NCBI RefSeq assembly: GCF_001735745.1
Contig: NZ_CP017260.1
Location: forward strand, 2,640,001 to 2,672,000
Reading direction: 5' to 3'
From: Formosa sp. Hel1_33_131
Lineage (GTDB): Bacteria > Bacteroidota > Bacteroidia > Flavobacteriales > Flavobacteriaceae
DNA: 32,000 nucleotides
Notes under the pieces: model-generated
Databases searched by the model: none
What the model saw: only the letters and a program-made list of their open reading frames with translations
Told to the model about the DNA's origin: nothing
In this document: positions 6,972-31,335 of the stretch, piece by piece
Numbering within the stretch: position 1 is the stretch's first letter
Layout of the letters: every line of letters starts with the position of its first letter
Position numbers and translations under genes: made by a program

Positions 6972-7008
6972 AGACGATTCCTTTAAATAAATTCTCAAAA
7001 AAATATTG

Positions 7009-7016
7009 TATTTTTG
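7009..7016 (+). promoter_or_regulatory. candidate -7 box (TATTTTTG) for the kdsB operon
   Basis: Exact TAnnTTTG match ending 23 nt before the ATG at 7040. Confidence 0.35.
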
Positions 7017-7039
7017 TTCATTAATTAATCTTAAGCTAA

Positions 7040-7774: not shown

Positions 7775-7789
7775 TTAAGAAGAATAATA

Positions 7790-8410: not shown

Positions 8411-8440
8411 TATATTATTATGGATTAATACTACCTAGTT

Positions 8441-9526: not shown

Positions 9527-9527
9527 C

Positions 9528-10781: not shown

Positions 10782-10861
10782 AGGTTTTATTGTATTCTAA
10801 ATAATGTTTAACAAAAATAAAAATGCTGAAGCGAAAAACAAGTATAAATCGACTTAAAACT

Positions 10862-11689: not shown

Positions 11690-11702
11690 ATTTCTACGAA
11701 AG

Positions 11703-12785: not shown

Positions 12786-12840
12786 AGTAAATTAGATTTT
12801 AAGTAGTACAAATCTAATCAAAAATAGGAATCGAAACGGC

Positions 12841-14136: not shown

Positions 14137-14138
14137 CC

Positions 14139-15068: not shown

Positions 15069-17521
15069 TAATGTGTATTTGAAATTCTAATAATATCTGC
15101 AAATAAACCTGAAGCCGTAACTTCAGATCCTGCGCCAGCTCCTTTGATAATCATGGGTTGATCGCTGTAACGGTTGGTGTAAAACATCACAATATTATCT
15201 TTTCCTTCCAGGTTGTAAAAAGGGTGTCCAACAGGAATTTCTTTGAGACCTACTTTTGACGCTCCATCTTTAAATTCTGCCACATATTTCAGTTGACAGT
15301 CGTTTGCTTCCGCAGACTGAAATAGTTTTTGAAACAAATCTTCATTGGTTTTTAGGGTTTCATAAAAAGCATCTACAGAGTTGGCCTCCATACATTCTTT
15401 TGGCAAAAACGCTTCATTTTGAATGTCTTCCATTTCTAACATCTCTCCGCTTTCTCTGGCTAAAATCAATAATTTTCTTGCAACATCCACACCACTCAAA
15501 TCAATTCTTGGATCTGGCTCCGTATAGCCTTCTAATTGTGCTTGTTTTACAACGTCGTGAAAGGTCGTGTTTTTATTGAAATTATTAAAGATAAAATTCA
15601 AACTTCCTGAAAGTACTGCATTGATGGAAGTGACATGATCCCCAGACATGATTAAATTTTTTAATGTATCAATGACGGGCAAACCAGCACCAACATTTGT
15701 TTCGAACAAGAAGGGCACATTGTATTTATGGGAAAGTTGCTTTAATTCTTTGTAGTTTTCTATGGCACCTGAACACGCAATTTTGTTACAAGCCACCACG
15801 GCGATGCTTTGTTTTAAATAGTGAGCATAGGTATTGGCGACCGCTTCGTTGGCTGTAATATCTATAAAAATAGAATTTCTTAAGTTTAAATCTTTTGAGG
15901 CTTCAAAGAACGCCATCGGTTCTGTTGGTTGTCCTTCTTTCAACAGAGTATCCCAATCTGAAAGATTTAATCCACTTTCATCAAACACCATCTTTTTAGA
16001 GTTGGAAAGGGCGACGACTTTAAGGTTGATTTTAAGTGTTGATTTTATGTATTTCTTTTGTTGTTTGATCTGATCCATGAGGGATTTACCTACATTTCCA
16101 ACCCCAGCAATGAATAAGTTCATTTGCTTGGTTTGTTCCTCAAAAAATTGCTCATGTAAAGAATTCAATGCTTTTTTTACATCCGATTCAGAAATCACGG
16201 CTGTAATATTCCGTTCTGAAGCCCCTTGTGCAATCGCTCTAATATTGACATTGTTTTTCCCTAAAGTACTAAACATTTTCCCGCTAATCCCTTGATGGCT
16301 TTTCATTTTATCACCTACAACCGCCACAATGGACAAGTTGGGTTCAATGATTAAAGGATCAATTTTATGGAGCGAAATCTCATTTTCAAATTCTTTATCA
16401 ATCACCGTTTTTGCGGAGAGCGCATCGGCATCTGAAACTCCAATACATATAGAATGTTCCGAAGATGCTTGGGTGATAATGATCACATTTATTTTAGAAT
16501 GCGCCAAGGTTTCAAACAAACGTTTGGAAAACCCAGGAATCCCTACCATGCCATTTCCTTGTAGCGTGAGTAAAGAGACATTATTGATATTGCTAATTCC
16601 TTTGATCGGAGATTGAGAGCCGTTTTCTGAAATTTTAGTAATCAAGGTTCCAGGATCTTGAGGTGCTAAGGTGTTTTTTATAAGTAGTGGAATGTCTTTT
16701 CGGAGGACGGGTTGCACGGTTGGTGGATACAATACTTTAGCTCCAAAGTGCGACAATTCAATGGCTTCTAAATACGATAACTTGCTAATTGGTTTCGCAT
16801 GTTTGACCATCTTAGGGTTGGTCGTAAACATCCCGCTTACATCTGTCCATATTTGCAAAACACTGGCGTTGAGTGCTGCCGCAAGAATCGCTGCAGTGTA
16901 ATCGGACCCACCACGCCCTAAAGTGGTGATCTCGTCATTTTCAGACTTGGATATAAAGCCTGGTAAGATGGTTACCATTTTTTGATTGCTTTCAAAATAG
17001 GTGGTGATATTGGCATTTGTTTCTTCAAAATTAACAGCTGCATTGGTAAAGTTTGAATCGGTTACAATTAAATTTTGTGAATTTTTTAATTGAACGTTGA
17101 CCCCTTTAGATTTGATCGCTTCGTAAATAATTAATGAAGAAATCAATTCTCCAAAACTGAGAAGTTTATCGTTTGTTTTTGGTGACAGTTCGTTTATTAA
17201 ATACACGCCATCTAATAACTTTTCAAGCCGTGATAAATGTTCCAACACAATGTCAGTAGTGGCTTCATGCACTTCGCCACTCAGTAAACCATCAATCACT
17301 TCGATATGCTTTAAGCGTAAGGACTCAAAGTCTTCTTTGTAACTGTGGTCTTTACGAATGGCTTTATCGGCCGCAATGAGTAATTTATCGGTAATTCCAC
17401 CAACGGCAGATACCACAACCACAATGTTTTCAGAAGCAGATTCTTCTTTAATGATTTTTATGACTTTGGATATGTTTTTTGAAGAACCTACAGATGTTCC
17501 TCCAAATTTTAAAACTTTCAT
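15068..17521 (-). CDS. thrA: bifunctional aspartokinase / homoserine dehydrogenase I
   Basis: 817 aa. The N-terminal aspartokinase starts MKVLKFGGTSVG and includes LGRGGSDYTAA. ACT domains follow, then a C-terminal homoserine dehydrogenase with a GVGNVG Rossmann loop. Confidence 0.95.
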   Translation of the reverse strand: MKVLKFGGTSVGSSKNISKVIKIIKEESASENIVVVVSAVGGITDKLLIAADKAIRKDHSYKEDFESLRLKHIEVIDGLLSGEVHEATTDIVLEHLSRLEKLLDGVYLINELSPKTNDKLLSFGELISSLIIYEAIKSKGVNVQLKNSQNLIVTDSNFTNAAVNFEETNANITTYFESNQKMVTILPGFISKSENDEITTLGRGGSDYTAAILAAALNASVLQIWTDVSGMFTTNPKMVKHAKPISKLSYLEAIELSHFGAKVLYPPTVQPVLRKDIPLLIKNTLAPQDPGTLITKISENGSQSPIKGISNINNVSLLTLQGNGMVGIPGFSKRLFETLAHSKINVIIITQASSEHSICIGVSDADALSAKTVIDKEFENEISLHKIDPLIIEPNLSIVAVVGDKMKSHQGISGKMFSTLGKNNVNIRAIAQGASERNITAVISESDVKKALNSLHEQFFEEQTKQMNLFIAGVGNVGKSLMDQIKQQKKYIKSTLKINLKVVALSNSKKMVFDESGLNLSDWDTLLKEGQPTEPMAFFEASKDLNLRNSIFIDITANEAVANTYAHYLKQSIAVVACNKIACSGAIENYKELKQLSHKYNVPFLFETNVGAGLPVIDTLKNLIMSGDHVTSINAVLSGSLNFIFNNFNKNTTFHDVVKQAQLEGYTEPDPRIDLSGVDVARKLLILARESGEMLEMEDIQNEAFLPKECMEANSVDAFYETLKTNEDLFQKLFQSAEANDCQLKYVAEFKDGASKVGLKEIPVGHPFYNLEGKDNIVMFYTNRYSDQPMIIKGAGAGSEVTASGLFADIIRISNTH

Positions 17522-17724
17522 GTGTTTATTTTATTGATTTTTAATGGAAACTATTGTTTTGGTATAAACAATAAAATTAGGGGCGGAATTAAATAATAGC
17601 AAAACCCAAAAGGGTGATCATAATTGCAGTCATCGTTACAAAAAGAGGATTCATTTGGAAAGGTTCCATGAAGGATAAATTTGTAGAACTTGTTAAGTGT
17701 TGCATTAGATATTTATTTAACTTT

Positions 17725-17732
17725 CAAAAGTA
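17725..17732 (-). promoter_or_regulatory. candidate -7 box (TACTTTTG on the minus strand) upstream of thrA
   Basis: Exact TAnnTTTG match on the minus strand about 200 nt upstream of the thrA ATG. It would give a long leader containing the small ORF at 17589-17669. Confidence 0.25.
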
Positions 17733-17961
17733 TCAATTTCAAAGTGAAAAAAAAATAATAATCTCAATTTTACAAATTATGGAATTTAGAGGGTATATAT
17801 TTTTAATAATTAACCAAAAACGAAGTATTCCTGCGCTTTTGTCAATCCCTTTAAAAATTACAAATTTTCAACATAAAAAAGCACTTATTAAATGTTGATG
17901 ACTGTTTAATAAATAGTCGTTGAAATTGTTGTTTTTAATATGTTTACAGCAATCTTATTAT

Positions 17962-17998: not shown

Positions 17999-19270
17999 AT
18001 GCAACGCGACGAACAAATTTTTGAATTAATTGAAGCTGAAAAAGAACGTCAAATCAATGGAATTGAATTGATTGCTTCTGAAAATTTCACAAGTGAACAA
18101 GTGATGGAAGCTACCGGATCTGTATTGACCAACAAATACGCAGAGGGATATCCTGGAAAGCGTTATTATGGAGGTTGTGAAGTTGTGGACGAAGTAGAGC
18201 TGATTGCTATTGATCGTGCCAAAACACTCTTTGGAGCTGCTTGGGCAAACGTACAACCCCACTCTGGAAGTCAGGCCAATACAGCCGTCTTTCATGCGTG
18301 TTTAAAAGTAGGGGATAAAATCTTAGGATTTGATCTCTCTCATGGTGGACACTTGACACACGGATCGCCTGTGAATTTCTCTGGACGTTTGTACGATCCC
18401 GTTTTTTACGGAGTTGAAAAAGAAACCGGTGTTTTGAATTACGATAAAATTCAGGAGATTGCGACCAAAGAACAACCAAAACTAATCATTGCAGGAGCCT
18501 CTGCTTACTCAAGAGATATCGATTTTAAGCGTTTTAGAATTATTGCCGACAGTGTGGGTGCTATTTTATTAGGCGATATTTCTCACCCTTCTGGATTGAT
18601 CGCTAAAGGTATTTTGAACGATCCTTTACCGTATTGTCACATTGTCACCACCACCACGCACAAGACCTTAAGAGGCCCAAGAGGCGGTCTGATTATGATG
18701 GGAAAAGATTTTGAAAATCCGTTTGGAATTACGTTGAAATCTGGAAAAGTACGCATGATGTCTTCTTTATTGGATTCTGCTATTTTCCCTGGAAATCAAG
18801 GTGGACCTTTAGAACATGTGATTGCTGGAAAAGCGATTGCTTTTGGTGAAGCATTGACCGATGAATTTTTACATTATATTTTACAGGTTAAAAAGAATGC
18901 GGATGCCATGGCAAAAGCTTTTGTAAAACGCGATTACCATTTGATTTCTGGTGGGACTGACAACCATATGATGCTGATTGATTTAAGAAACAAAAACATC
19001 ACTGGAAAGGTTGCCGAACAAGCCCTTGTAAAAGCGGATATTACGGTGAATAAAAACATGGTGCCGTTTGATACACAGAGTCCCTTTGTAACTTCTGGAA
19101 TCCGTGTTGGAACGCCTGCAATTACCACTCGTGGTTTGGTAGAATCTGATATGGAAACGGTTGTTGAGTTTATTGACCAAGCACTTAACAACCATGAAGA
19201 TGAAGCGAAATTAGAAGCGATTTCAGAACAAGTAAATGCGATGATGAGTCACCGTCCTTTGTTTGCTTAG
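17999..19270 (+). CDS. glyA: serine hydroxymethyltransferase
   Basis: 423 aa with [22 protein letters not shown] and the PLP-lysine block [14 protein letters not shown]. Confidence 0.97.
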
Positions 19271-19292: not shown

Positions 19293-19325
19293 GAGCCTCC
19301 TAATTTTATTGGGAGGTTTTTTTTG
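19293..19325 (+). terminator. rho-independent terminator after glyA
   Basis: cctcc(t) at 19296-19301 pairs with (g)ggagg at 19311-16 around a 9-nt loop, followed directly by an 8-nt T run (19317-19324). Confidence 0.6.
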
Positions 19326-19426
19326 TGTTATATTTTAACTTATGTTAATTAATTATTAAAATATAAGGCAACCATTTTTTTAAATTAGGTTTTTGTTATA
19401 GCTTTAGAGTTCCTAAATCTATTACT

Positions 19427-22400
19427 ATGAAAAAAACAGCCCTCCTTGCCATTGTATTCTTCCTATACATCCAGCCTGCAGTTTCGCAAGAATTGCCAAC
19501 AATAATTCCGCCATCGCCGACAGCTTTTCAAATGACACGTTACGGAGATGTTGCTGTTAATGAGTCAACAGGAAAAATCAGTCCTAGTATCCCTCTTTAC
19601 ACGTACAGAGCAGGGCGTTTAAATTTGCCAATTGGCTTATCCTACCAGGGTAATGGAGTAAAAGTAGATCAGTCGGCAAGTTGGACCGGTATTAACTGGA
19701 ACTTAAATGCAGGAGGTGTTATTGCTAGAACCGTAAGAGATCAAGATGATTTTAATTCTCAAGGAGGAAGGCGATTTTATTCTGAACAAAATTTAAATGA
19801 AATGGATATTTATAACAACCCAGATAATATCGCATTATTATACAATTTTATTACAGCGAATACAGCAGATTCGGAAGTAGATATTTTTAGTTTTTCTTTT
19901 CCAGGATACTCTGGGAGTTTCTATTTTGATGAAGATTTTGAAGCTCATTTAACAAAAAATGATTCTCCACTTAAAATTGAAGTTGACGAGGGACCTCCAA
20001 TTGACAGTGACGGAATAACTCAACATTTAAAACGAGAAATTACAATAACAACTCCAGAAGGTATTAAATATTATTTTGGAGGCCTGCATGCTTCAGAAGC
20101 TTCAAAGACAGTATATCCTACCGCTGGTGGAGGTGCAACAAATTTTGTTCAAACAGCTTTTTATTTACATAAGATGCAGCACCCTTTGGGAGACGAAATA
20201 TATTTTGTTTATGAAACTTTCCCTTTTGAATACAGTAATTTAATTGCAGTTTCTGAAAGAATTTCTATGCTAGTAGAAACCTATACTTCTTGCCTTAAAC
20301 CAGATGAGACCTTACCAGATCTTGGTGCGATTGATAAGTTAAGAAACTCTATTAAAGACGGCCAATTTCTGAAAAGAATTTATAGTAATAAAAACTCTTA
20401 TGAGGTTGTATTTAGCAACTCTACAGTTCCTATATCTAATACAGACGTTAGACCACATTATTTAAAAGTATTAAATAGCATGATCGCAAGAAATTCAATG
20501 AATCTTTCAGAAGAATTAGAAAAAATTGATTTTGAATATCTATATCCAAAAGGGGTTGAAAATTCCCAAAGATTTTTTCTTAAATCTGTAAATTTCAATA
20601 ATGGTACTTCTTATAAAATGGACTACAATTCTCCAGAAAGCTTACCTAAACGGTTTGATTATGACCAAGATCATTTAGGTTATTTTAATAACAAAGGAAA
20701 TTCTAGGTTTGCTCCCAAAACAGATAACAGTGCATTTACTTCTATTTATAATTCGTTGGCCGATAAAAGTCCAAAATTCAATTATTCTTCAAAAGGAGCA
20801 TTAATCAAACTAACATACCCTACAGGAGGATATTCCGAATTTGAGTATGAAAGTGGCTTTCTCAGTAATGAAACTGCTTCTGAAACAAAGTATGCGCACT
20901 TTATAACCTATAGAAATGACCCCACAAGAAACCCTAGTAATAAAAATCCTAATTTTGTTTATCTTGGGGTACTAGAGAATGATAGAGGAATAGGAGGCTC
21001 TGAAAATGGAACAGTAGACACAATAAAGGATCAGTTAATTGACGTAAGATTACATAATGTAAAAAGTATACAACACCTAGATATGCATGTAATATTCCGA
21101 CTTACAGTGAAAGACTTTACGGATAATACGGAACAGATTCTTAACAAACAGCATCAGTATGGTTCAGAAATTCTAGATTGGGATCCGGTTTTAGGAAACG
21201 TTTTTACTTATGAAACTTTTATTTTTAAAGGAATCAGGTTTAAAAGAGGGCATAACTATAAAATTTCATTAGAAATAGTTGCTAATTCTGTTGAATCTAA
21301 TGGAACAATAAATGCTAATATTGATTTTAATTATGAAGTAGAAACAGAAGAACTTATAGAAGATTTAGGAATTCGTATAAAAAGTGTTACAGATTACCCC
21401 GCTAATAAAGCGGCTACCCGTAAGCACTACGAATATTTATCTGAAAGCACTGCAATTATCCCTAGATACGTATACAGTACTTTAACTAAAATTTGTTGTG
21501 ATGAACCTTTAGGGGCCGTTATAGAGAAATCACTTGTGAACCTCACCTCTTCAAGTATTAGCTCTATATACACAAACAGTAACAACGAAAAAGTATATAG
21601 CAAAGTACTTACTTATATGTCAGATGTCAACTCTGAAAATCCTAAAAAAAATTATATTAATGGTTACATTGAAAAGGAATTTATTGTTAGATCAGATGCT
21701 TCGCCTTTCAATTTCTTAGGAGGAGTTACTGGTTCAAGTGCTATATTAGCTGTAGATACGGATTATTATAGATTGCCCAATAAAAGAGAAAATAAATCGG
21801 TAGTTAATGGGCTTTTAAAAAAGGAAAAAATATTCTCTAAAACTGGTGGTATACAGAATGAATATAGATTAATTAAAGAAACAGAATACGATTATACAAT
21901 TGATAGTAACTCTACTTTTATTACTAATAATGCTACCACTGAACTATTTACACGTTGTGAAATAGTAGGAAATGTAAGTGATTTAGGCACTACATATTTG
22001 GGGTTATATAACACATATTCTAATAAAGTACAGCTGAATTCAACAACTACCAAAGTTTTTGATTTTGGTAGTTCAACAATTTCAGGGTCAAATACATCTT
22101 CAGTTGATGCAGCGAAGGTTTTAGAGACTACAATTGAATATGAGTACGATCAATATGTTGGACTTCCAACAAAAGTAACAACCTTTTCTAGTGATACGGA
22201 TATTGCTACAGAAACACGCTACACATACCCAAGTATCTCTAACGATGTTGTGAGTCATATATCAAAACCATTATTCATTCGATCGTATATTACTAATAAT
22301 TTTGGTACTTCTTCAGAATTATTATCTACAGTACAAAATACATATAATAATAACTTCAATCACTATGGCCAGGATTTAAAACTGCCTTCTAAAGTAAAAG

Positions 22401-22903
22401 TTTTAAAAGGAGAGTTAACAGATGAGAGCTTTTTAGAGGACCGCATCCTCTACCACGACTACGACGCCTACGGCAACCCCTTAGAAGTCAGTAAAGCCGA
22501 TGGCACCCACATTGTTTACATCTGGGGTTACAACCAAACCCAGCCCATTGCCAAAATAGAAAACGCCACCTATGCACAGGTATCAAGTCGGGTTGCGAAC
22601 TTACAAACCCTCTCCAATGCAGATGACGATAGAACCGTTGACATCTTAAATTCAAATGGCACCATCACAAAAGTTGGTAAAGAAGGCGATTTAAGAGAAG
22701 CATTACGAAATTTAAGAATCAACTTCAAAAATTCCTTAGTCACCACCTACACCTACGACCCCTTAATAGGCGTCACCAGTGTCACCGACCCACGGGGAAA
22801 CACCGTTTATTATGAATACGACCCCTTCAACCGCCTGAAACACGTCAAAGACAAAGACGGCAATATTTTAAGTGAAAACGAATACAACTACAAAAACCAA
22901 TAA
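19427..22903 (+). CDS. large secreted protein: signal peptide, SpvB/TcB-N-like N-terminal region, C-terminal YD repeats (RHS partner protein)
   Basis: 1158 aa with the signal peptide MKKTALLAIVFFLYIQPAVS|QE. The N-terminal pattern PPSP...YGDV.V....G..S.SIPLY.....L.LPIGLSY...G.KV...ASW.G..W.L..GG resembles the start of SpvB/TcB-type proteins; this is a motif-level judgement only. The last roughly 150 aa carry YD repeats (YHDYDAYGNPL, YTYDPLIGVTSVTDPRGNTVYYEYDPFNRLKHVKDKDGNIL). The stop lies 4 nt before the RHS gene start. Confidence 0.85.
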   Translation: MKKTALLAIVFFLYIQPAVSQELPTIIPPSPTAFQMTRYGDVAVNESTGKISPSIPLYTYRAGRLNLPIGLSYQGNGVKVDQSASWTGINWNLNAGGVIARTVRDQDDFNSQGGRRFYSEQNLNEMDIYNNPDNIALLYNFITANTADSEVDIFSFSFPGYSGSFYFDEDFEAHLTKNDSPLKIEVDEGPPIDSDGITQHLKREITITTPEGIKYYFGGLHASEASKTVYPTAGGGATNFVQTAFYLHKMQHPLGDEIYFVYETFPFEYSNLIAVSERISMLVETYTSCLKPDETLPDLGAIDKLRNSIKDGQFLKRIYSNKNSYEVVFSNSTVPISNTDVRPHYLKVLNSMIARNSMNLSEELEKIDFEYLYPKGVENSQRFFLKSVNFNNGTSYKMDYNSPESLPKRFDYDQDHLGYFNNKGNSRFAPKTDNSAFTSIYNSLADKSPKFNYSSKGALIKLTYPTGGYSEFEYESGFLSNETASETKYAHFITYRNDPTRNPSNKNPNFVYLGVLENDRGIGGSENGTVDTIKDQLIDVRLHNVKSIQHLDMHVIFRLTVKDFTDNTEQILNKQHQYGSEILDWDPVLGNVFTYETFIFKGIRFKRGHNYKISLEIVANSVESNGTINANIDFNYEVETEELIEDLGIRIKSVTDYPANKAATRKHYEYLSESTAIIPRYVYSTLTKICCDEPLGAVIEKSLVNLTSSSISSIYTNSNNEKVYSKVLTYMSDVNSENPKKNYINGYIEKEFIVRSDASPFNFLGGVTGSSAILAVDTDYYRLPNKRENKSVVNGLLKKEKIFSKTGGIQNEYRLIKETEYDYTIDSNSTFITNNATTELFTRCEIVGNVSDLGTTYLGLYNTYSNKVQLNSTTTKVFDFGSSTISGSNTSSVDAAKVLETTIEYEYDQYVGLPTKVTTFSSDTDIATETRYTYPSISNDVVSHISKPLFIRSYITNNFGTSSELLSTVQNTYNNNFNHYGQDLKLPSKVKVLKGELTDESFLEDRILYHDYDAYGNPLEVSKADGTHIVYIWGYNQTQPIAKIENATYAQVSSRVANLQTLSNADDDRTVDILNSNGTITKVGKEGDLREALRNLRINFKNSLVTTYTYDPLIGVTSVTDPRGNTVYYEYDPFNRLKHVKDKDGNILSENEYNYKNQ

Positions 22904-22907
22904 CAGG

Positions 22908-25900
22908 ATGCGACACACCACCCCTCTCTACCTTATTCTATTGTGCTTTATCACAGGTACATTATATACAGCAGCTCAAGACAGAGCTATAAACATTGAA
23001 GACATTGGTAGTTCTGTGAGTATCTCAGGCCCCTCTAACGTTATGCTAAACGAAACTGTTAGTTACACAGCCACTACAGAATCTGGACAAATTTCTTCAG
23101 CAACTTGGAGTGTTGTAGGAGGAGACGTTTTAAGCAGTTCAGCAACAAGTGCTTCTATCAAATGGACCCATGTTGGACCTAAAATCATTAACTATACAGG
23201 AAGAACAACCACAAGAACAACATTAAGAGGCAACTACATTGTTAGAGTTAGTGCTCCTATTGCACCAGCTACGCCCTCACCACCAATTATAGCAAGTCAA
23301 AACTGTTCGTCAGCACTCCTCCAAAAATCTGGCACAGTCCCAAGTGGTGTGCAATGGTATTGGCAAGGAACCAATAGTCAGGGCAGTAGCACCTCTTTTG
23401 CTCAAAACACTTATACTGCAAATGCAACAGGCACTTACTACCTCCGTGCTCGAAATACTCAAGGTGTTTGGAGTACAAGAAGTAGTTCAGTATCTGTAAC
23501 TCTAGGAATGATTGGAGGTTCGCAATGGTATGCCGATACAGATGGTGATGGGTTTGGAGATCCAAACACAAGTCAATTAAGTTGTAACCAACCTTCTGGC
23601 TATGTCAGTAATAATACTGATCAATGTCCAGAATTAAGCGGAACCAATTCTGGATGTCCATCGACAAGTGTAAATGAAAATTATATATTAACAACCAATT
23701 ATCTATCAGAAACGTTGGATGGTGAGGTTTCTAATGGTGAAAAACAAGAAACCATCACCTACATTGACGGTTTGGGCCGTCCCAAACAACAAATAGGCAT
23801 CCGACAAAGCCCCACCGGCAAAGACATCATCACCCATATTGGCTATGACCCATTTGGCAGGCAAAACAAAAACTATTTGCCCTATGTACCAGAAGTTGCA
23901 GGAAGCGAAGGCACCTTCCGAATTGGCAACCAACAACAAGCCACCACCAATTTTTACAACACCCCCAAATACGAAAACACCCAAAACCCCTACAGTGAAA
24001 CCCATTTTGAAGCCTCGCCGCTCAACCGTGTTTTAGAACAAGGCGCCCCCGGCACCGACTGGGCAGTTGATAAAGACAGTGACACCGACCATACCATCAA
24101 ATTTGACTACCAAACCAATGCCCAAACAGACTTTGTACGCCTTTATAAAGTAAACTTTATAAACAACGACACCAAAGCCCCCCAGCTCCAAGACGCCGGC
24201 TTTTATGCCCCCAACGAGCTCTACAAAACCATTACTAAAGACGAAAATTGGAAACCAGGCACCAGCTACAACAATGACGGCAGCAACAACACCACCCAAG
24301 AATACAAAAACAAACAAGGGCAAGTTATTTTAAAACGCAGTTTCAACAACAAAAAATGGCACGACACCTACTACGTCTATGACGACTATGGAAACCTCAC
24401 TTTTGTGCTTCCCCCAAAACTAAACACCTACGCCTCCTTATGGCAGCAAGACAACCTAGGCTACAAATATTTTTCCAATGTATATTCGTTGTACCAACCC
24501 GGCTACCAAAGCTACTATAACTACTTGGGCTACTATTTTTCCACCCACAACAAACGCTTCCAACTTTACTTTGGAGATTATAACGGTCCCAGAGTTGCTT
24601 TAAAAGAAGGCATGGTCTTTGACTTAGGCTTGGAATTTGACATTCCCGACGGTCCCTTGCAAGGAGATATCCGTATTACCACCAGTCCCAACACCTACAA
24701 CTGGGAAACAGGACACTACACCGCTAAGATCATCAACGGACAACTGCACCTCCATGGTGATGGAACCGTCGCTTACAGAGTCTCTGCAAACCTATATATG
24801 CCGATGGAACGCGTGACCGTCTCCCACACCATCACCACCAGCGAACTCAACGACTTGGCCTACCAATACAAATACGACAAACGCAACCGCTTAATTGAAA
24901 AGAAAATCCCTGGTAAAGACTGGGAATACATCGTCTATGACAAACTCGACCGTCCCGTGATGACCCAAGACGCCAACTTGAGAGCCGCCAACAAATGGCT
25001 TTTTACTAAATACGACGTCTTTGGACGCGTCGCCTACACAGGCAGTAGAGACTTAAACTCCATGTACTACACCCGCAGTGTGATGCAATACTTTGCAGAT
25101 GGAAACGGGTACACCCAATACGAATCCAAAAGAAGACTACACACCCTTGGAGGCACTTCCATATACTACACCAGTACCGCCATGCCAACCGGAGTCACCA
25201 AAGTCTATACCATCAACTACTACGACACTTACGAAGATGTCCCAAGCGACTTGACCGTACCTACTGATGTCTTTGGACAAACCGTCACCGCCCAAACCAA
25301 AAGCCTGCCAACCGTTAGCAAAGTCCGCGTATTGGACACCAACCACTGGATTACCAATGTCACCTACTACGATGCCAAAGCACGCCCCATCTATCTGTAC
25401 AGTAAAAACCCCTATCTAGGAACCACCGACATTACCAAACTCCAACTTGACTTTACAGGCAAAACCCTGCAAACCCATACCACCCACAAAAAAACAGGAC
25501 AAGCCGATATTGTCACTGTAGAGCACTACGATTACGACCCTGCAGGTCGACTCTTGACCCAAAAACAAACCCTCAACGGACAAGCCCAAGAACTCATTTC
25601 TGAAAACCACTACGACGCACTAGGCCAACTGGAAAGCAAAGGCGTCGGAGGGAAAGCCACCGCCAGCAATCCCTTACAAACCATTGACTACGCCTACAAC
25701 ATACGTGGTTGGCTCAAACGCATCAACACTCCTGGCGCTTTGGGAGACGACCTCTTTGGATTTGAACTCAACTACAACACCCCACAAGGCCCCACAACCT
25801 CCACATGGTACAACCACCCCTTGTACAACGGAAACATTAGCCATGTGACCTGGCAAACCAACAACGTCTCCAGCGACCAACGGCATTACAACTACCGCTA

Positions 25901-27965
25901 CGACGCTTTGAACCGATTTACCCATGCCTACTATGCTGAAAACAGCCAGTACACACATAAATATAATGCGTATATTTACAACTACGACCGCAATGGGAAC
26001 ATTGGGAATTTGTACCGAAGTGGTCAAAATCCCAATAACCAGAACACAAGTTATTCAATGGACTATTTAAAATACACTTATGACGAAGGCAACCAACTGA
26101 CAGGCGTAAAGGACCACTATAACAATACCACTTCCAACAGCATGGGCGGATTTAAGGATGGAAACACCACCCCAGTAGACTATGCCTACGACACCAATGG
26201 GAACATGACCGTGGATAAAAACAAAAACATTACAAGCATCCAATACAACCATTTGAATTTGCCAACTAAAATAGTTTTCAATAATGACGACCCTGCGTTT
26301 TCTCGCACCCCAAAAGCCATCGAATACACCTATGATGCGACGGGAGTGAAGCTCTCTAAAAAGGTGAATGAAAACTTTAATATCACCAACACTCAATACG
26401 CTGGTAATTATATTTATGAAAACAGCACCCTTAAATTCTTTTCCCACCCCGAAGGCTATATAGAACCTTCAACCACTGGTTTTGACTATGTGTACCAATA
26501 CAAAGACCATTTAGGAAATGTACGTTTGTCGTATTCCGATATGAACAAAGATGGTGTAGTAGCCCCAGCAAATTGGACCACCGTTTTTAGTGACGATTTA
26601 GAAAACAGCACTGGTTGGGACAGTGAAGGCTCCACAAGTGGTTGGTCAGCACCAATAGACACCACTAAAGGCCATTTAGATAATTCGTCTGTAAAATTAC
26701 ACCGCACCGTTTCTGGAGGGTATTATGCCCATTCCAACGAATGGATTCCAATAAATGAATCAGAACCCAACACCTATAAGTTTTCAGGATGGGTCTATGT
26801 AGAAAGTAGTGGGTACTCTTGGGTAATGTTGTCCTTTTTTATGAATGAAGATACAGAAACGAATTATTATACAGAAGTTTCAGAGATCTCTCGTATTTTC
26901 ACGAAAAATCAATGGGTTTATTTGGAGCAGGAAGTTACAGTTCCTGTTAATATTGATAAAATTAATTTAAGAGTTGGGTTGTATAATGGGAGCCCGAGTG
27001 TGACCGCTTGGTTTGATGAGTTGCGTATCGAGCGAATCGGTGAAAGTGAGATTGTAGAGGAATCGAATTACTATCCATTCGGGCTTAAACATAAAGGGTA
27101 TAATAACGTGACATCTGCGAATGTAAATTCTGTAGCAAGCAAGTTTAAATTCAATGGTGTGGAGTTGGAAGAATCCTTAGGACTCGATTTATATGAAACT
27201 AATTTACGTCTATATGACCCTGCAATTGGTAGATGGAATGCAATTGACATTGTAGATCATTTTGAATATTCTCCTTACCAAGCGTTTGACAATAATCCTG
27301 TATTTTTTGCAGATCCAAGTGGTGCTGATTCAATATATAATTTTGAAACAGGTCAATATGTAATAGATGGGCAGGAGGTTTCCTTTGATGAAGCTGTTGC
27401 ATATGCTGAAAATGGAGGGAATAGTGATGGAAATAATAATAACAATTGTTGTAATGACCCCATACAATTTTTTAATTGGCTGGGTTCCCTTTTGGGATTA
27501 AACAACTATAATATAGGGGATGATATTGGATCAAAAATTAATGGAACGAAAAATCCGGCTAATAATACATTGGCACCAGTAGATTTTGGAGTCAAAAAAT
27601 GGATTGCAAATAATAAAGATGATCTATTATCTCTTGCTCAAATAATGCAAGATGTTGGAGATGGAGGAGCAGTTGTTGGCTATGCTCTTACAATATCAGT
27701 TATTGGAGCGGAAGTAGGTATACCTCTTGCAGCTTCAGGTAATATAGTTTCCACTATGGGATCAGGGTTAGAAATAACTGTACATCTAACCCAGAGAGAT
27801 TTAGAAAATGCGACAAATGAGGCTGGTTGGGTTGTAGCAGGAAAACTAATTGATGCAGGATTAAAGAAAATACCAGGGGGCTCTCAATTAGCGAACGAAA
27901 TAATACAACAAAATGGAGCAGTTAAAATGATATTAACCGAAAGAATTGTTGAATCTAAGAAGTGA
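22908..27965 (+). CDS. RHS/YD-repeat polymorphic toxin with signal peptide, RHS core and a variable C-terminal toxin tip
   Basis: ORF track starts at 22872. I prefer ATG at 22908 (MRHTTPLYLILLCFITGTLYTAAQD, a signal peptide), 4 nt after the upstream stop. There are many YD repeats (YVYDDYGNL, YQYKYDKRNRL, HYDYDPAGRL, YRYDALNRF, YAYDTNGNM, YTYDATGVKL). The core end reads DHLGNVRLSY...NYYPFGL...LRLYDPAIGRWNAID...SPYQAFDNNPVFFADPSG (DPSG at 27312-27323). An unrelated tip of about 210 aa follows. Confidence 0.93.
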   Translation: MRHTTPLYLILLCFITGTLYTAAQDRAINIEDIGSSVSISGPSNVMLNETVSYTATTESGQISSATWSVVGGDVLSSSATSASIKWTHVGPKIINYTGRTTTRTTLRGNYIVRVSAPIAPATPSPPIIASQNCSSALLQKSGTVPSGVQWYWQGTNSQGSSTSFAQNTYTANATGTYYLRARNTQGVWSTRSSSVSVTLGMIGGSQWYADTDGDGFGDPNTSQLSCNQPSGYVSNNTDQCPELSGTNSGCPSTSVNENYILTTNYLSETLDGEVSNGEKQETITYIDGLGRPKQQIGIRQSPTGKDIITHIGYDPFGRQNKNYLPYVPEVAGSEGTFRIGNQQQATTNFYNTPKYENTQNPYSETHFEASPLNRVLEQGAPGTDWAVDKDSDTDHTIKFDYQTNAQTDFVRLYKVNFINNDTKAPQLQDAGFYAPNELYKTITKDENWKPGTSYNNDGSNNTTQEYKNKQGQVILKRSFNNKKWHDTYYVYDDYGNLTFVLPPKLNTYASLWQQDNLGYKYFSNVYSLYQPGYQSYYNYLGYYFSTHNKRFQLYFGDYNGPRVALKEGMVFDLGLEFDIPDGPLQGDIRITTSPNTYNWETGHYTAKIINGQLHLHGDGTVAYRVSANLYMPMERVTVSHTITTSELNDLAYQYKYDKRNRLIEKKIPGKDWEYIVYDKLDRPVMTQDANLRAANKWLFTKYDVFGRVAYTGSRDLNSMYYTRSVMQYFADGNGYTQYESKRRLHTLGGTSIYYTSTAMPTGVTKVYTINYYDTYEDVPSDLTVPTDVFGQTVTAQTKSLPTVSKVRVLDTNHWITNVTYYDAKARPIYLYSKNPYLGTTDITKLQLDFTGKTLQTHTTHKKTGQADIVTVEHYDYDPAGRLLTQKQTLNGQAQELISENHYDALGQLESKGVGGKATASNPLQTIDYAYNIRGWLKRINTPGALGDDLFGFELNYNTPQGPTTSTWYNHPLYNGNISHVTWQTNNVSSDQRHYNYRYDALNRFTHAYYAENSQYTHKYNAYIYNYDRNGNIGNLYRSGQNPNNQNTSYSMDYLKYTYDEGNQLTGVKDHYNNTTSNSMGGFKDGNTTPVDYAYDTNGNMTVDKNKNITSIQYNHLNLPTKIVFNNDDPAFSRTPKAIEYTYDATGVKLSKKVNENFNITNTQYAGNYIYENSTLKFFSHPEGYIEPSTTGFDYVYQYKDHLGNVRLSYSDMNKDGVVAPANWTTVFSDDLENSTGWDSEGSTSGWSAPIDTTKGHLDNSSVKLHRTVSGGYYAHSNEWIPINESEPNTYKFSGWVYVESSGYSWVMLSFFMNEDTETNYYTEVSEISRIFTKNQWVYLEQEVTVPVNIDKINLRVGLYNGSPSVTAWFDELRIERIGESEIVEESNYYPFGLKHKGYNNVTSANVNSVASKFKFNGVELEESLGLDLYETNLRLYDPAIGRWNAIDIVDHFEYSPYQAFDNNPVFFADPSGADSIYNFETGQYVIDGQEVSFDEAVAYAENGGNSDGNNNNNCCNDPIQFFNWLGSLLGLNNYNIGDDIGSKINGTKNPANNTLAPVDFGVKKWIANNKDDLLSLAQIMQDVGDGGAVVGYALTISVIGAEVGIPLAASGNIVSTMGSGLEITVHLTQRDLENATNEAGWVVAGKLIDAGLKKIPGGSQLANEIIQQNGAVKMILTERIVESKK

Positions 27966-27969
27966 AAAT

Positions 27970-28170
27970 ATGATTGAAAACAATAAAATATTATTTGGTG
28001 TAGGGTGTATTATTTTCGGTGTTGTTTTCTTGTATTATAATTTTAATAATAATGACTATAAGAATGATAGGGCATGGGATATAGCTATGATTTTTAAAGG
28101 TTTGGTTGGAGGTTTAGCAGTTATATTAATAGGCATTATCGCTATACTGATGCATTTTAATTTTTTGTAA
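27970..28170 (+). CDS. small two-TM inner-membrane protein, candidate cognate immunity protein
   Basis: ATG at 27970, 4 nt after the RHS stop; the ORF-track TTG at 27946 would overlap. The 66 aa contain two hydrophobic helices (ILFGVGCIIFGVVFLYY and FKGLVGGLAVILIGIIAILM). The position immediately 3' of a polymorphic toxin tip is the canonical immunity slot. Confidence 0.65.
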   Translation: MIENNKILFGVGCIIFGVVFLYYNFNNNDYKNDRAWDIAMIFKGLVGGLAVILIGIIAILMHFNFL

Positions 28171-28196
28171 AAATAATTGTCAGAAAATATTATAGA

Positions 28197-28883
28197 ATGA
28201 AAAATAAAAATTTAATTGGAATAATAATATTAGTTTTATTATTTAATTGGAATTACGGTTCATCTCAAAACTACTTTGAAGGAGAAATGTATTTTCATAT
28301 AGATTATGAGTTAATCGATAAGAAAATATCCAAAAACAACCTAATTAAGCAAATGGGAGATTCTGTAGTTGCTTACCTAAAAGAAGATAAGTTTGTACTA
28401 CTACATAATTCAAAAGGAAAATTAGGTAAAAGAAAGACTATATTTTTACTTAATGAAGGTTTTAACTATGTAGATTATGAAAAGTCAGACACTATAATGA
28501 GATTTAATTTAAATAAAATTTCAGGAAAACTTTTAAATTTTAATAGAAATTTACACGAAAATAAACCTATACTTAATGAATTATGTGAATCAATAACTAT
28601 AGAGTTTGAATCAACTAACAAAGAAGATTTTTTTCAGAAACACAAAGGTAAATACTATTTTAGTGCAAATAATTATAAATTAAATCCAAAGTATTACAGG
28701 AATTATGAAAGCAATTTTTGGAATTTATTTGTTAAAGAGTCTACTTCAATTTCCCTGAGAAACGAAGTCGAATACTATCCATTATTTAAATCAATACAAC
28801 AGGTTTATGGAACAATCAAAAGGAAAATACCAGATTCAGTATTTCAATTAAATAAAAATAAATATATTAAAATTATGAAATAG
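28197..28883 (+). CDS. secreted hypothetical protein (signal peptide; unknown family)
   Basis: 228 aa with an N-terminal MKNKNLIGIIILVLLFNWNYGSS|QN signal peptide. The protein is very Asn/Lys/Tyr-rich and the DNA is extremely AT-rich: a hand count of the 60-nt line at 28201 gives 8 G+C. Confidence 0.6.
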   Translation: MKNKNLIGIIILVLLFNWNYGSSQNYFEGEMYFHIDYELIDKKISKNNLIKQMGDSVVAYLKEDKFVLLHNSKGKLGKRKTIFLLNEGFNYVDYEKSDTIMRFNLNKISGKLLNFNRNLHENKPILNELCESITIEFESTNKEDFFQKHKGKYYFSANNYKLNPKYYRNYESNFWNLFVKESTSISLRNEVEYYPLFKSIQQVYGTIKRKIPDSVFQLNKNKYIKIMK

Positions 28884-29089
28884 GTTGTCAACAGGGAGAT
28901 TGTTATGATCCAGTAGATTTTAAAAATGACTCAGATGATGAGATTTATAAAAAACTTTTAAACAATATTACCACTTTTGTTAAAGCTAAAAATAAAGCCA
29001 TAAGAACAAGAGAGACAATGGCAGCCGTTTATATTGAAGAACTTATTAGGCTAGATAATATATATGGGGATATTCATAAATCCCCTCCT

Positions 29090-29183: not shown

Positions 29184-29324
29184 ATGAGTAGAAATTATAA
29201 ATTTCATAATCCAGAAGAATATGTTTATAGTAGTGCCGTTGATTATGCAGATCAAAAAGGATTTATAGATGATGTGCTGGTTTTTACAATGTTAAATTAC
29301 CACACGAAAGGATTCGTGCGGTAG
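29184..29324 (+). pseudogene. N-terminal stub of a RAYT / IS200-IS605-type Y1 transposase
   Basis: 46-codon ORF MSRNYKFHNPEEYVYSSAVDY... preceded by AAGGAGG. From memory, the MSRxYKFHNxE..Y.xS.A start matches the N-terminus of Bacteroidota Y1_Tnp/RAYT-like transposases. There is no HUH motif or catalytic Tyr region, and the ORF runs into the right hairpin. Confidence 0.4.
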
Positions 29325-29970: not shown

Positions 29971-31335
29971 TTAATCAAAAGCTTGCGTTTCTCCAACATG
30001 CACTTCTTGTACATTATAAATATCGTAGTGTGGTGAATCTGTATGGGTTTCATCAAAGTAATCCACAAAAGTTTTAGTATAAGTGTTTCTTACAAATGCA
30101 ATCACTTTTAAATTAGCGACATCATCTACATTAGATGGCAAGTCGAGTCCTGTAAGGGTGCGTGTCAAAACACCTCCAGCCATGGTATTAGAAGCGTCAA
30201 TAGCATCTCCTAATTGATCGGTGTAAACTTCTCTTAAAACATCTCTGTGCACATAGTTAGCGCCCTGAGAAGAGCCTGCTTGCGCTGTAGAGGTTGTAAC
30301 ATTATCTTCTAATAAATAAATCATTAATCGTACAGCTTCATTTGCTGCTGTGTTAAATCCAACTTTAACTTCTAAATCGAGTTTACCACCGACAAGAGCT
30401 GCGTCAACAGCTAAACCAACGGTCGCAGTTTCTGCTAGTTCGGTGTTCACTTGTGACATGCTGTTATAATTCCATCGCGTATCTGGACCGTTCACATAAA
30501 CCGTTGGAAAACCAGTCACGTTATAGTAACCAGACCAGAAAGCAGTTTCTGGAATGGTCATTGGCTCACTACCGCCACCACCGGCATGATAACCGACTCC
30601 AAATATGTTTGAATTTCCACTCATCGCATTTGCAATAGCGGAGCCCGCAGGTGGACATTGTGGACACCATGTCCCTGTGAAATCTTCTAAAAGTGCTTTC
30701 TTAGTAAAAGTTGTAGGAGCTCCAGAAGCTGTAAATGACGAGGTGTCACTAGGGCTAGAAGCAGATACCACATTGATAGTTATTGTATTGGAAGTTAAAC
30801 CTTCGTAAGTAGCTTCAAAATTATAAGTGCCATCAGCAGTAAATGGATAGGGATTGGCTGTAGTAACCGTTCCGTTCACAGTCACTTCAGCTTCCGTTGT
30901 GACCGTATTATTGAAGTTATCTGTAACAACAAATATGGCAGAGTCTCCATTGTTATAATTATCTTGATCAAAACTTAATTCAATACTCGTTGGAGGAATA
31001 TCAGTCACAGTTATTGTAAGCGTGTTCGATGTTAAATCTTCGTACGTAGCAACCACTTGGTAAGTTCCTTCTAAGTTAAACGAAAAAGGGTTTGAAACAG
31101 AAAGGTTATCTACTTTTAAAGAAGATAAACTTGTTAAGTCAGTAGAGTTGTTGCCTGTTACGATGAACGCTACTTGAGCACTTGTGTTGACTGTATTAGA
31201 AGCTGTTGACAATGTTATTGATGTTACTGCTTCGTTGTCAGACCCAGAACCAGATCCTGTAGGTTCATTACTGTCAGAGCAACTTGTGATTAAAAATCCA
31301 AGAAGGATAAATTTAAAAAGATTCAATGTTTTCAT
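29971..31335 (-). CDS. Omp28-related outer-membrane lipoprotein with two Ig-like repeats and a thioredoxin-like WCPQC module
   Basis: 454 aa with the lipoprotein signal MKTLNLFKFILLGFLITS|C. It has a tandem domain duplication of about 77 aa (…EGTYQVVATYEDLTSNTLTITVTD / …DGTYNFEATYEGLTSNTITINVV). The C-terminal half has EDFTGTWCPQCP, as recalled for the Omp28 family. Confidence 0.6.
   Translation of the reverse strand: MKTLNLFKFILLGFLITSCSDSNEPTGSGSGSDNEAVTSITLSTASNTVNTSAQVAFIVTGNNSTDLTSLSSLKVDNLSVSNPFSFNLEGTYQVVATYEDLTSNTLTITVTDIPPTSIELSFDQDNYNNGDSAIFVVTDNFNNTVTTEAEVTVNGTVTTANPYPFTADGTYNFEATYEGLTSNTITINVVSASSPSDTSSFTASGAPTTFTKKALLEDFTGTWCPQCPPAGSAIANAMSGNSNIFGVGYHAGGGGSEPMTIPETAFWSGYYNVTGFPTVYVNGPDTRWNYNSMSQVNTELAETATVGLAVDAALVGGKLDLEVKVGFNTAANEAVRLMIYLLEDNVTTSTAQAGSSQGANYVHRDVLREVYTDQLGDAIDASNTMAGGVLTRTLTGLDLPSNVDDVANLKVIAFVRNTYTKTFVDYFDETHTDSPHYDIYNVQEVHVGETQAFD

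Follow-up and report, generated by a model that had tools for sequence, protein, structure and literature searches.

A Sec-type two-gene RHS cassette of Formosa sp. Hel1_33_131 resembles the TcB-TcC pair in predicted structure and recurs beside a type II secretion-like gene cluster in Bacteroidota

Introduction

Formosa sp. Hel1_33_131 carries, directly after glyA, two adjacent genes for very large proteins with tyrosine-aspartate (YD) repeats of the rearrangement hotspot (RHS) type, here called gene 1 and gene 2. They lie in a 32,000-nucleotide stretch of contig NZ_CP017260.1 (assembly GCF_001735745.1, positions 2,640,001 to 2,672,000), hereafter the window, and positions given below are those of the window unless a locus is named. 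Both proteins begin with what looks like a cleavable Sec signal peptide, and the locus raises the question of how such a pair works together and by which route it leaves the cell. An earlier note, made from the sequence alone, had set the pair against a choice between type VI secretion system (T6SS) cargo and the TcB-TcC cocoon of ABC (Tc) toxins and had left the delivery route unexplained. Both statements need revision. The dichotomy is incomplete, since RHS toxins with signal peptides, some of them from Bacteroidetes, have been classed under 'T2SS' or 'TcdB/TcaC' export (Zhang et al. 2012, PMC3482391) and Sec-type YD-shell toxins occur in other phyla (PMC13018210). The route has a candidate, since the pair recurs in related genomes within a type II secretion system (T2SS)-like cluster. 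Overall, our analysis suggests a pair that is exported by Sec, assembles as a BC-like capsule in the periplasm and passes the outer membrane through a T2SS-like machine, a reading that we consider fairly probable.

Results and Discussion

Linkage of gene 1 and gene 2 across Bacteroidota

The genome scan used one genome per species and was seeded with the gene 1 alignment; at least 438 relatives were confirmed among 600 pattern matches, and the best 80 loci were analysed. Analysis of these loci revealed that 53 of the 62 testable gene 1 ORFs (open reading frames) are directly followed on the same strand by an ORF with DUF6443 and an RHS shell, and that two more are fused to it in frame (L049 and L074, Table 1), giving 55 of 62 together. 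Of the other seven, five are either split or duplicate copies or are accompanied by a DUF6443 gene at another place in the locus, and among the testable loci only L012 and L057 were seen to have none. In the L049 fusion the gene 1 tail passes through a linker of ~25 aa to the DUF6443 motif 'YLDGLGRP', and this junction is free of a signal peptide, a stop codon and any ambiguous base. The L074 fusion likewise lacks a second signal peptide and has a short linker between the gene 1 YD tail and DUF6443. The same picture was obtained from nine loci seeded with gene 2, i.e. four from F. eburneipallidum, those of Flavivirga, Tenacibaculum and Polaribacter, and those of the two genes most closely related to the window gene 2. 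Directly upstream in all nine is a long ORF of 961-1182 aa, identified as a gene 1 homologue in the seven loci checked with phmmer and also in a second cassette of L081 (E 1e-59 to 1e-95). The pair is syntenic across Bacteroidota, and it shows the linkage to RHS genes on which the earlier proposal for gene 1 depended.

Signal peptides of the two families

Read from the sequence, both N-termini have the n/h/c layout of a signal peptide, MKKTALLAIVFFLYIQPAVS↓QE in gene 1 and MRHTTPLYLILLCFITGTLYTAA↓QD in gene 2 (the arrow marks the predicted cleavage). A heuristic combining K/R in the n-region, an h-region, the -3/-1 rule and Gln at +1 was applied to 120 listed homologues of each gene family and found a signal-peptide-like N-terminus in 109 gene 1 and 111 gene 2 homologues (~91%), with an A-x-A↓Q site in 101 and 102 of them, respectively. 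Several of the exceptions inspected suggest truncated gene calls, as they start within or just past the region where the signal peptide is expected. Glutamine at +1 is the Bacteroidetes Q-rule for signal peptidase I substrates (PMC5837995). The signal peptides reported in the earlier note are thus supported by the heuristic, by the Q-rule and by the homologues; because such N-termini are common to ~91% of both families, predicted Sec export is a conserved trait of both and no accident of the present locus.

Predicted TcB-like fold of gene 1

The gene 1 family has at least 390 homologues of ~1100 aa each, and in the genome scan it ranged over Flavobacteriia, Cytophagia, Sphingobacteriia, Chitinophagia and Bacteroidia. 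Beyond the terminal RHS repeat, neither Pfam nor NCBIfam has a model for the family, and the sole Pfam match in gene 1 is RHS_repeat at aa 1116-1146 (5e-8), in agreement with the earlier observation that the gene ends in YD repeats. Its tail 'KDKDGNILSENEY.YKN' is nearly identical among Formosa, Flavobacterium and Polaribacter, and the terminal YD hairpins are proposed as the docking edge for gene 2.

The AlphaFold2 (AF2) model of gene 1, built from a 31-sequence alignment, reached a pLDDT of 78.6 and a pTM of 0.75. Comparison of this model with the PDB by Foldseek revealed TcB chains or TcB-TcC fusions at all of ranks 1-13 (E 7e-23 to 8e-20; query-normalised TM-score, TMq, 0.37-0.39). YenB was the top match (4igl_A, E 7e-23, TMq 0.38) and TcdB2-TccC3 was also matched; TMq was at most 0.13 for T6SS Rhs cores and teneurins, with ~0.10 for the Rhs cores, and 0.23 for mosquito SGS1. 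The SpvB N-domain 6p0x_A was matched as well (E 1.7e-6; target-normalised TM-score, TMt, 0.44). The SpvB-like N-terminus suggested earlier for gene 1 therefore stands as a predicted fold but was undetected by any sequence model. Pfam SpvB/TcdB models gave no match in gene 1 (E ≤ 10) or in 31 family members (E ≤ 0.1), the family profile matched YD repeats and nothing else among PDB sequences, and when the two sequences themselves were searched against PDB chains, YD repeats were again the sole matches. No signature of the TcB beta-propeller was detected. Overall, the predicted fold of gene 1 resembles TcB with an RHS half-shell; because the TM-score is below 0.5, we speak of resemblance rather than proof. 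Together with synteny and fusions, these matches favour the earlier proposal that gene 1 is a TcB-like partner of gene 2.

The variable insertion of gene 1 is all-beta in the AF2 model and has weak jelly-roll-type Foldseek matches. Homologues P0025, P0039 and P0072 carry BACON-domain extensions and those in L024, L030, L055 and L060 are 1600-2200 aa long, which indicates that the family accepts added carbohydrate-binding or surface modules.

Gene 2 as a predicted TcC-like polymorphic toxin

Gene 2 is a member of the DUF6443 family, scoring 148.6 bits compared with the curated cut-off of 27.8. Its residues 265-1464 are 100% identical to P0121, a protein of 1685 aa from Formosa sp. Hel1_33_131 annotated as 'DUF6443 domain-containing protein', and its family has at least 4754 matches at E ≤ 1e-10. 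The N-terminal region, in which homologues have Ig_7, PKD or different domains, contains weak Ig_2 and Ig_7 (immunoglobulin-like) matches at aa ~130-198. The AF2 model of gene 2 covers aa 265-1464 (pLDDT 82.6), and Foldseek matched it to Rhs cores, a bacterial teneurin-like protein (9ifo_A), teneurins and TcB-TcC. The best superpositions were on the TcC chains 5kis_B (TMt 0.48) and 6l7i_G (TMt 0.53), on SGS1 and on the TcdB2-TccC3 fusion; the root-mean-square deviation was 8.5-10.9 Å on TcC, SGS1 and TcdB2-TccC3 and above 30 Å on T6SS Rhs cores.

Inserted in the shell is a domain resembling a carbohydrate-binding module (CBM), with Foldseek matches to CBM16, CBM22 and CBM61 (TMt 0.52-0.64) and an occupancy of 0.92-0.97 across 43 aligned gene 2 homologues, nearly all of which keep it. 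It is unusual for an RHS capsule to bear a lectin-like domain that faces outward, and this one may bind glycans of the target cell. The Rhs core motif is conserved across the gene 2 alignment, with invariant R, R and D residues, and is read as a putative aspartyl autoprotease with its cleavage site. This assignment comes from motif and alignment, as the NCBIfam RHS-core model gave no score on gene 2 at E ≤ 0.01.

The C-terminal toxin domain of gene 2 belongs to no Pfam family. Among 1.84 billion representatives it has 168 relatives (E ≤ 0.001), and in nearly all relatives listed the matched stretch is at or near the C-terminus; of ten relatives scanned, three were DUF6443-RHS proteins and one more had an RHS repeat. 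Its hydrophobic segment, located by hydropathy analysis (Table 1), suggests that the toxin is probably membrane-acting. The C-terminal domains of gene 2 homologues are diverse and include M23, amidase_2, amidase_3, VanY, M15_4, colicin D, AHH, NucA, ParB and Tox-MPTase2. A small ORF (68-218 aa) follows gene 2 in nine of the nine gene-2-seeded loci, and short RHS C-terminal fragments, possible orphan cassettes, lie 3' in L010, L056, L077 and other loci. Varied C-terminal domains with small downstream ORFs are the signature of an antibacterial polymorphic toxin. At the level of sequence, gene 2 combines the traits by which such toxins are recognized, i.e. a trafficking signal, repeats, a variable toxin, a downstream candidate immunity ORF and, in related loci, possible orphan modules. 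It also combines those of TcC, i.e. an RHS shell in the model, a predicted aspartyl autoprotease core and a hypervariable C-terminal toxin.

Expression and stoichiometry

Expression was assessed from the subproteome tables and supplements of Unfried et al. (PMC6246565), where gene 1 was assigned by gene order to FORMB_26090 ('hypothetical protein') and gene 2 to FORMB_26100. Both proteins were detected in the membrane, soluble intracellular and extracellular subproteomes, and both genes are real and expressed. Abundances are given as relative intensity-based absolute quantification (%riBAQ, gene 1/gene 2), and whether a value belongs to the glucose sheet (first) or the laminarin sheet (second) was judged by where it stands in the files. 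They were 0.0026/0.0033 (glucose) and 0.0017/0.0030 (laminarin) in the membrane fraction, 0.0181/0.0191 and 0.0103/0.00995 in the soluble intracellular fraction, and 0.0139/0.0089 and 0.0223/0.0221 in the extracellular fraction. The ratio of gene 1 to gene 2 over the six condition-by-fraction values was 0.56-1.56, so the two proteins appear to be produced in roughly equimolar amounts and both behave as soluble. The B-then-C order, the fusions, the conserved junction and the abundance of ~1:1 are what a TcB/TcC-like heterodimer predicts, and none of them proves a shared shell; gene 1 may complete or cap the shell of gene 2, as the earlier note proposed.

The far greater size of the gene 2 family, and the lack of a gene 1 directly upstream of at least one T2SS-adjacent DUF6443-RHS gene, suggest that one gene 1 may serve several gene 2 paralogues. 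A parallel is found in Yersinia, where different TcC cargoes encoded at separate loci share one shell (PMC11067744).

Recurrence of the pair beside a T2SS-like cluster

Recurrent neighbours were identified by clustering all ORFs of the 80 loci and then assigning Pfam families. Among the neighbours of gene 1 are T2SSE (1.8e-127), Secretin (9e-36), T2SSF (7e-44), pilin-like proteins and a weak PilN-like protein. T2SS-like genes were found at 13 of the 57 gene-1-seeded loci having at least 5 kb upstream, compared with a chance expectation of ~1% for a 20-kb neighbourhood in a 4-Mb genome by our own rough estimate. The cluster lies beside or around eight of the nine gene-2-seeded loci, among them the loci of the two genes that are closest to the window gene 2 (70-71% identity), each of which lies inside the cluster. 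This recurrent placement of the pair beside or inside a T2SS-like cluster is a new observation.

The canonical cluster has three parts. A pseudopilin, a 158-160-aa protein, GspE, the secretin and proteins of ~400 and ~170 aa are divergent from the cassette; then come gene 1, gene 2 and the immunity gene; and the third part consists of GspF and five to six small proteins, among them an N_methyl pseudopilin, often with further cassettes behind. F. eburneipallidum has two complete copies of the cluster, with cassettes between the two halves of each. These loci (L081-L084) lie in CP114291.2 at 2.31-2.36 Mb and 2.87-2.89 Mb, and in one of the regions three cassettes are interspersed with insertion sequence (IS) elements.

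A secretin-seeded sample consisted of three loci, from Algibacter, Olleya and Mariniflexile. In Algibacter a DUF6443-RHS gene is adjacent. The Olleya cluster adjoins an OmpH chaperone gene and then a gene for a 1591-aa, divergent gene-1-like exported protein, and the start of the next ORF resembles the gene 2 N-terminal region. The 1591-aa protein matches the gene 1 N-terminal motif, the one part they share, with an hhalign probability of 96% (39% identity over 74 residues), which suggests a wider superfamily of gene-1-like proteins tied to the T2SS-like machine. The OmpH/Skp-type periplasmic chaperone gene lies beside the cluster in both Olleya (L090 6159-6695) and Mariniflexile (L092 296-829), a placement also reported for F. 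psychrophilum (PMC5808330), and the chaperone may assist large Sec-exported cargo. In the Flagellimonas/Muricauda-type loci L059 (7023-9963), L062 (6862-9441) and L073 (2700-9891), the stretch from the T2SS-like genes to gene 1 holds additional ORFs, which contain domains of the fn3, DUF2341 (LamG-like) or T4 tail-fibre-like type.

In Formosa, GspD (FORMB_04930) and GspF (FORMB_04690), as annotated by the authors, are encoded elsewhere and were detected as proteins (PMC6246565). What a T2SS substrate presupposes, i.e. signal peptides and T2SS genes in the same genome, is thus present. Related suggestions are found in the literature. Duchaud et al. noted in passing a T2S cluster with ABC-toxin-like proteins in F. 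psychrophilum CC-ST10 (PMC5808330), whose FPSM_02426 and FPSM_02429 are possible orthologues of gene 1 and gene 2. For gspG-linked Rhs families of Xanthomonas and Ralstonia, T2SS export was predicted and is, as stated there, functionally unconfirmed (bioRxiv 10.1101/2025.05.08.652813). Judging from genomic context, the T2SS-like cluster is probably the export route of the pair.

Alternative explanations

Several observations weigh against this route. The window is without any T2SS-like gene, its cassette standing alone amid housekeeping genes, and 44 of the 57 gene-1-seeded loci have no T2SS gene within 10 kb; conversely, the Mariniflexile secretin locus, one of three, is without an RHS gene within 10 kb. 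No Formosa secretin is among the 120 secretin matches listed, which leaves the Formosa GspD and GspF as candidates for the RHS-linked type. The secretin is a conserved core gene, with 64-99% identity across genera, and its system may be housekeeping and merely an insertion hot spot. A capsule of ~310 kDa would be very large for a secretin and would exceed any known T2SS substrate. Another route is hinted at by 16 loci, mostly of Flavobacterium, in which the gene directly 5' of gene 1 encodes a Por_Secre_tail protein (~1e-9), and the extracellular fraction also holds ribosomal proteins, so that the fractions do not separate localisation. All this leaves room for a two-part Sec-exported toxin that exits by outer-membrane vesicles, by lysis or by piggy-back on, or tethering to, a surface protein secreted by a type IX secretion system (T9SS), with T2SS adjacency reflecting a hot spot or co-regulation; the T9SS of Formosa is active, with GldM, GldJ and SprA detected. 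We nevertheless find such an exit unlikely, as neither protein has a T9SS C-terminal domain and cassettes lie between the cluster halves in several genera, with the whole system duplicated in one genome, an arrangement for which chance insertion is hard to invoke. Direct T9SS cargo was rejected, there being no Por_Secre_tail or CHU_C match in either protein; the model does match the tail of the upstream neighbour in other genomes.

The partnership itself could also be read differently, with gene 2 as a self-closed Rhs capsule plugged by DUF6443 and gene 1 as an accessory protein outside the shell, for example an adaptor for secretion by the T2SS-like machine, an anchor at the surface, or a factor that binds the target or serves translocation in place of TcA. 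The gene 2 shell plus DUF6443 amounts to ~1050 aa, similar to complete, self-sufficient T6SS Rhs cores, and could close alone. The gene 2 family looks much larger (at least 4754 compared with at least 390 scored matches), the T2SS-adjacent DUF6443-RHS gene mentioned above lacks a gene 1 directly upstream, and the variable insertion of gene 1 possibly binds a ligand. The TcB likeness of gene 1, moreover, is that of a predicted structure with a TM-score below 0.5, detected by no sequence model. A self-closed capsule is rather improbable in our view, given that gene 1 finds its best structural match in TcB, which forms a shell, that the fusions join the gene 1 YD hairpins to DUF6443 by a short linker, much as the TcB C-terminus is joined to the TcC N-terminus, and that the abundance is near 1:1. 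TcB-like and TcC-like folds in B-then-C order would also suit a canonical ABC toxin against eukaryotes with TcA encoded elsewhere in the genome. This is very improbable. Both present proteins bear signal peptides, whereas canonical Tc proteins are freed by lysis and are not known to have such peptides (PMC10847048); bacterial targets are indicated by homologues whose toxins are peptidoglycan hydrolases or nucleases with adjacent immunity genes. Neither TcA in the window nor a large recurrent TcA-like family among the neighbours in the 80 loci was found, and neither a propeller signature nor an SpvB/TcdB sequence signature was detected, so the canonical toxin was rejected. Gram-negative RHS toxins are commonly T6SS effectors, and mis-called start codons might disguise T6SS(iii) cargo, which we find hardly credible. 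The in-frame extension of gene 2 ends at GTG 22872, with a stop codon just 5' of it, leaving no space for a hidden N-terminal PAAR domain; an upstream in-frame PAAR, which the earlier note had asked about, was found neither in the window nor in the 120 listed homologues, as judged for the latter by their precomputed Pfam domains. The signal peptides are conserved in both families, and no PAAR, VgrG or Hcp was found in the window, in the Pfam domains of those homologues or in the recurrent neighbour families that were listed. At the level of sequence evidence, T6SS cargo is refuted.

The Por_Secre_tail neighbour is ~530-650 aa long and encoded on the same strand directly 5' of gene 1, giving a three-gene cassette; the loci include L004, L006, L010, L014, L015, L022, L024, L026, L027, L030, L038 and L072. 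Such a protein may tether the pair at the surface or point to a different route.

Comparison with known systems

Comparison with known systems indicates that the pair works most like a BC subcomplex, yet stands outside the ABC toxin family. As in TcB-TcC (YenB-YenC, TcdB2-TccC3), the genes are adjacent, B then C, and occasionally fused; gene 1 has the SpvB-like N-terminal fold and RHS sheet of TcB as predicted features, gene 2 has the RHS shell, core autoprotease motif and hypervariable C-terminal toxin of TcC, and one B-type family may serve many C-type paralogues. Unlike TcB-TcC, the present pair has cleavable Sec signal peptides, no detected TcA partner or propeller, carries DUF6443 at the junction and added Ig-like and CBM-like domains, and has no sequence-level similarity except YD repeats. 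Its toxins and immunity genes point to bacterial targets, and it has a T2SS-like link and no lysis cassette.

With T6SS Rhs effectors (RhsA, Tse5, Tse15, Salmonella bongori Rhs) the system shares a YD capsule, the core motif, a polymorphic toxin, a downstream immunity gene (here a candidate) and loose RHS C-terminal fragments in related loci, possibly orphan cassettes. It differs from them in being two-chain and signal-peptide-bearing and in being without PAAR, VgrG and T6SS genes. WapA of B. subtilis is a Sec-dependent YD/RHS toxin made as a single polypeptide; like the present system, it has a signal peptide, a YD shell around a toxin and an immunity gene close by. Bacterial teneurin-like proteins share these features, and for BiTLP a membrane-damaging C-terminal domain was described (PMC13018210). 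WapA and the teneurin-like proteins are single chains from other phyla with FN-plug/NHL or cell-wall-binding domains, whereas the present system is split, diderm and T2SS-linked; compared with the teneurin-like proteins, only the YD shell matches (9ifo_A), there is no NHL or FN-plug family by Pfam, and there are two chains. The Xanthomonas/Ralstonia families and F. psychrophilum CC-ST10 are similar in that Rhs or BC-like proteins are genomically linked to a T2SS and secretion was proposed; the former families are defined by gspG linkage, unlike the present pair. A literature search for DUF6443 found no papers.

Proposed mechanism

The cassette is proposed to be a polymorphic-toxin operon encoding a two-chain RHS capsule, analogous to TcB-TcC (BC) and adapted to Sec. 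Gene 1 would be the TcB-like chain, with SpvB-like N-terminal domain, RHS sheet, variable beta insertion and conserved terminal YD hairpins. Gene 2 would be the TcC-like chain, with Ig-like domains, DUF6443, a YD shell bearing the outward CBM-like insertion, the autoprotease motif and the ~210-aa toxin. Each chain would be exported unfolded by Sec and, as the sequences suggest, be cleaved by signal peptidase I at A-x-A↓Q. The two may then fold and assemble 1:1 in the periplasm, the toxin being enclosed and released by autoproteolysis. Genomic context suggests that the capsule could pass the outer membrane through the machine of secretin, GspE, GspF and pseudopilins, or be displayed on a pseudopilus. 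This T2SS-like machine is encoded around the cassette in related genomes and would in Formosa be encoded elsewhere (GspD, GspF); no TcA-like injector would be involved. Target cells may be bound through the Ig-like, CBM-like or variable insertions. The toxin would attack neighbouring bacteria, probably at the membrane, and the 66-aa protein with two transmembrane helices would neutralise it and protect the producer.

Locus architecture and surroundings

The ORF list and the sequence agree with the layout given in the earlier note, i.e. genes for proteins of 1158 and 1685 aa, 4 nt apart, after the glyA terminator, which is the upstream boundary of the cassette. The end at 28170 given there is not that of gene 2; it is the stop of the 66-aa candidate immunity ORF. 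Pfam (E ≤ 10) and NCBIfam scans of both proteins found no PAAR, VgrG, Hcp, TcA or T9SS C-terminal domain, in agreement with the absence of these markers from the window reported earlier.

Table 1. Features of the cassette in the window and of the related loci named in the text
Feature	Position	Strand	Size or residues	Remarks
glyA	17999-19270	+		Pfam SHMT, 1e-165
glyA intrinsic terminator	19293..19327	+		12-bp stem then T-run; hairpin and T-run 19293-19319
Gene 1 (FORMB_26090)	19427..22903	+	1158 aa	ATG 19427, TAA 22901-22903; TcB-like RHS partner (predicted)
Gene 1 signal peptide	19427..19486	+	aa 1-20	predicted cleavage AVS↓Q
Gene 1 conserved N-terminal region	19496..20866	+	aa ~24-480	most conserved block aa 51-100; SpvB-like predicted fold
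Gene 1 variable all-beta insertion	20924..21346	+	aa ~500-640	lowest conservation of the family, 0.27-0.28
Gene 1 terminal YD hairpins	22736..22876	+	aa ~1104-1150	conservation 0.62, high
Gene 2 (FORMB_26100)	22908..27965	+	1685 aa	ATG 22908, TGA 27963-27965; DUF6443-RHS polymorphic toxin, TcC-like (predicted)
Gene 2 signal peptide	22908..22976	+	aa 1-23	predicted cleavage TAA↓Q
Gene 2 N-terminal Ig-like region	22977..23669	+	aa 24-254	DTDGDG motif; varies among homologues
DUF6443	23700..24101	+	aa 265-398	Pfam PF20041, E 1.6e-43
YD/RHS shell	24102..26573	+	aa 399-1222	AF2 model and Foldseek
CBM-like beta-sandwich inserted in shell	26574..27035	+	aa 1223-1376	CBM_4_9 5e-5, below curated cut-off
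Rhs core	27036..27329	+	aa 1377-1474	'NYYPFGL ... LYDPAIGRW ... NNPVFFADPSG'
C-terminal toxin domain	27330..27962	+	aa 1475-1685, 211 aa	glycine-zipper-like hydrophobic segment aa 1583-1616
Candidate immunity ORF	27970-28170	+	66 aa	two transmembrane helices; starts 4 nt after gene 2 stop
ORF 3' of immunity candidate	28197..28883	+	228 aa	24% GC; own signal peptide (GSS↓Q)
L049 gene 1-gene 2 fusion	9902-16510		2203 codons	
L074 gene 1-gene 2 fusion	5907-11813		1969 codons	
Olleya exported protein (L090)	715-5490	minus	1591 aa	gene 1 N-terminal motif alone shared

The 66-aa ORF gave weak transmembrane-type Pfam matches and nothing stronger. The 228-aa ORF, with a weak DUF5906 match by Pfam, is possibly a second immunity or accessory gene; by gene order it would be FORMB_26120 (mapping unverified), which was detected once, in the soluble intracellular proteome.

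The Pfam-matched neighbours in the window are housekeeping genes (thrA, thrB, thrC, gcvT, dnaX and others), and the ORFs at 4695-5429 and 17614-17898 had no Pfam match. Composition is uneven. Within 23000-29000, the shell-coding DNA of gene 2 has 46-48% GC, a GC skew of -0.27 to -0.30 and an AT skew of +0.23 to +0.28; the background is ~30-40% GC, and 28001-29000, 3' of the toxin, falls to 24%. This fits repeat-biased amino acids together with horizontally exchanged toxin/immunity modules. A remnant of an IS200/Y1 transposase suspected at 29184-29324 was without Pfam support and was rejected. A sigma-70 promoter scan was run; the sigma-70 consensus is uninformative for Bacteroidota. An Omp28-family protein (454 aa) is encoded at 29971-31335 on the minus strand and may, by locus-tag arithmetic, be FORMB_26150 (assignment unverified). 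FORMB_26150 is a 48-kDa 'hypothetical protein' that the Formosa extracellular proteome lists with its most abundant entries and that is also in the bloom metaproteome table (PMC6246565).

Conclusions

DUF6443-RHS proteins are abundant in Bacteroidota, as the number of matches given above indicates; flavobacteria of marine and fresh waters are the source of the homologues listed, and the loci include Bacteroidota of soil and sediment as well. Beyond the reading favoured here, we tentatively put forward, at somewhat less than an even chance, a dedicated Bacteroidota pathway in which the T2SS-like machine, of the type IV filament family, exports or displays on its pseudopilus a TcA-free capsule of ~310 kDa, put together in the periplasm from one TcB-like and one TcC-like chain with DUF6443 as docking element between them. 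This would be a widespread interbacterial weapon and, with the same reserve, one distinct from T6SS, contact-dependent inhibition (CDI) and Tc toxins. The hypothesis is directly testable in genetically tractable Flavobacterium species with the full cluster. If a Sec-exported BC-like capsule does leave through a T2SS-like machine, assembly of RHS capsules would be possible outside the cytoplasm and the range of type II-like secretion would include very large toxin complexes. Such a capsule would also provide a compact, TcA-independent scaffold for protein encapsulation, and would point to a major unstudied mechanism of bacterial competition in algal blooms and other habitats rich in Bacteroidota.

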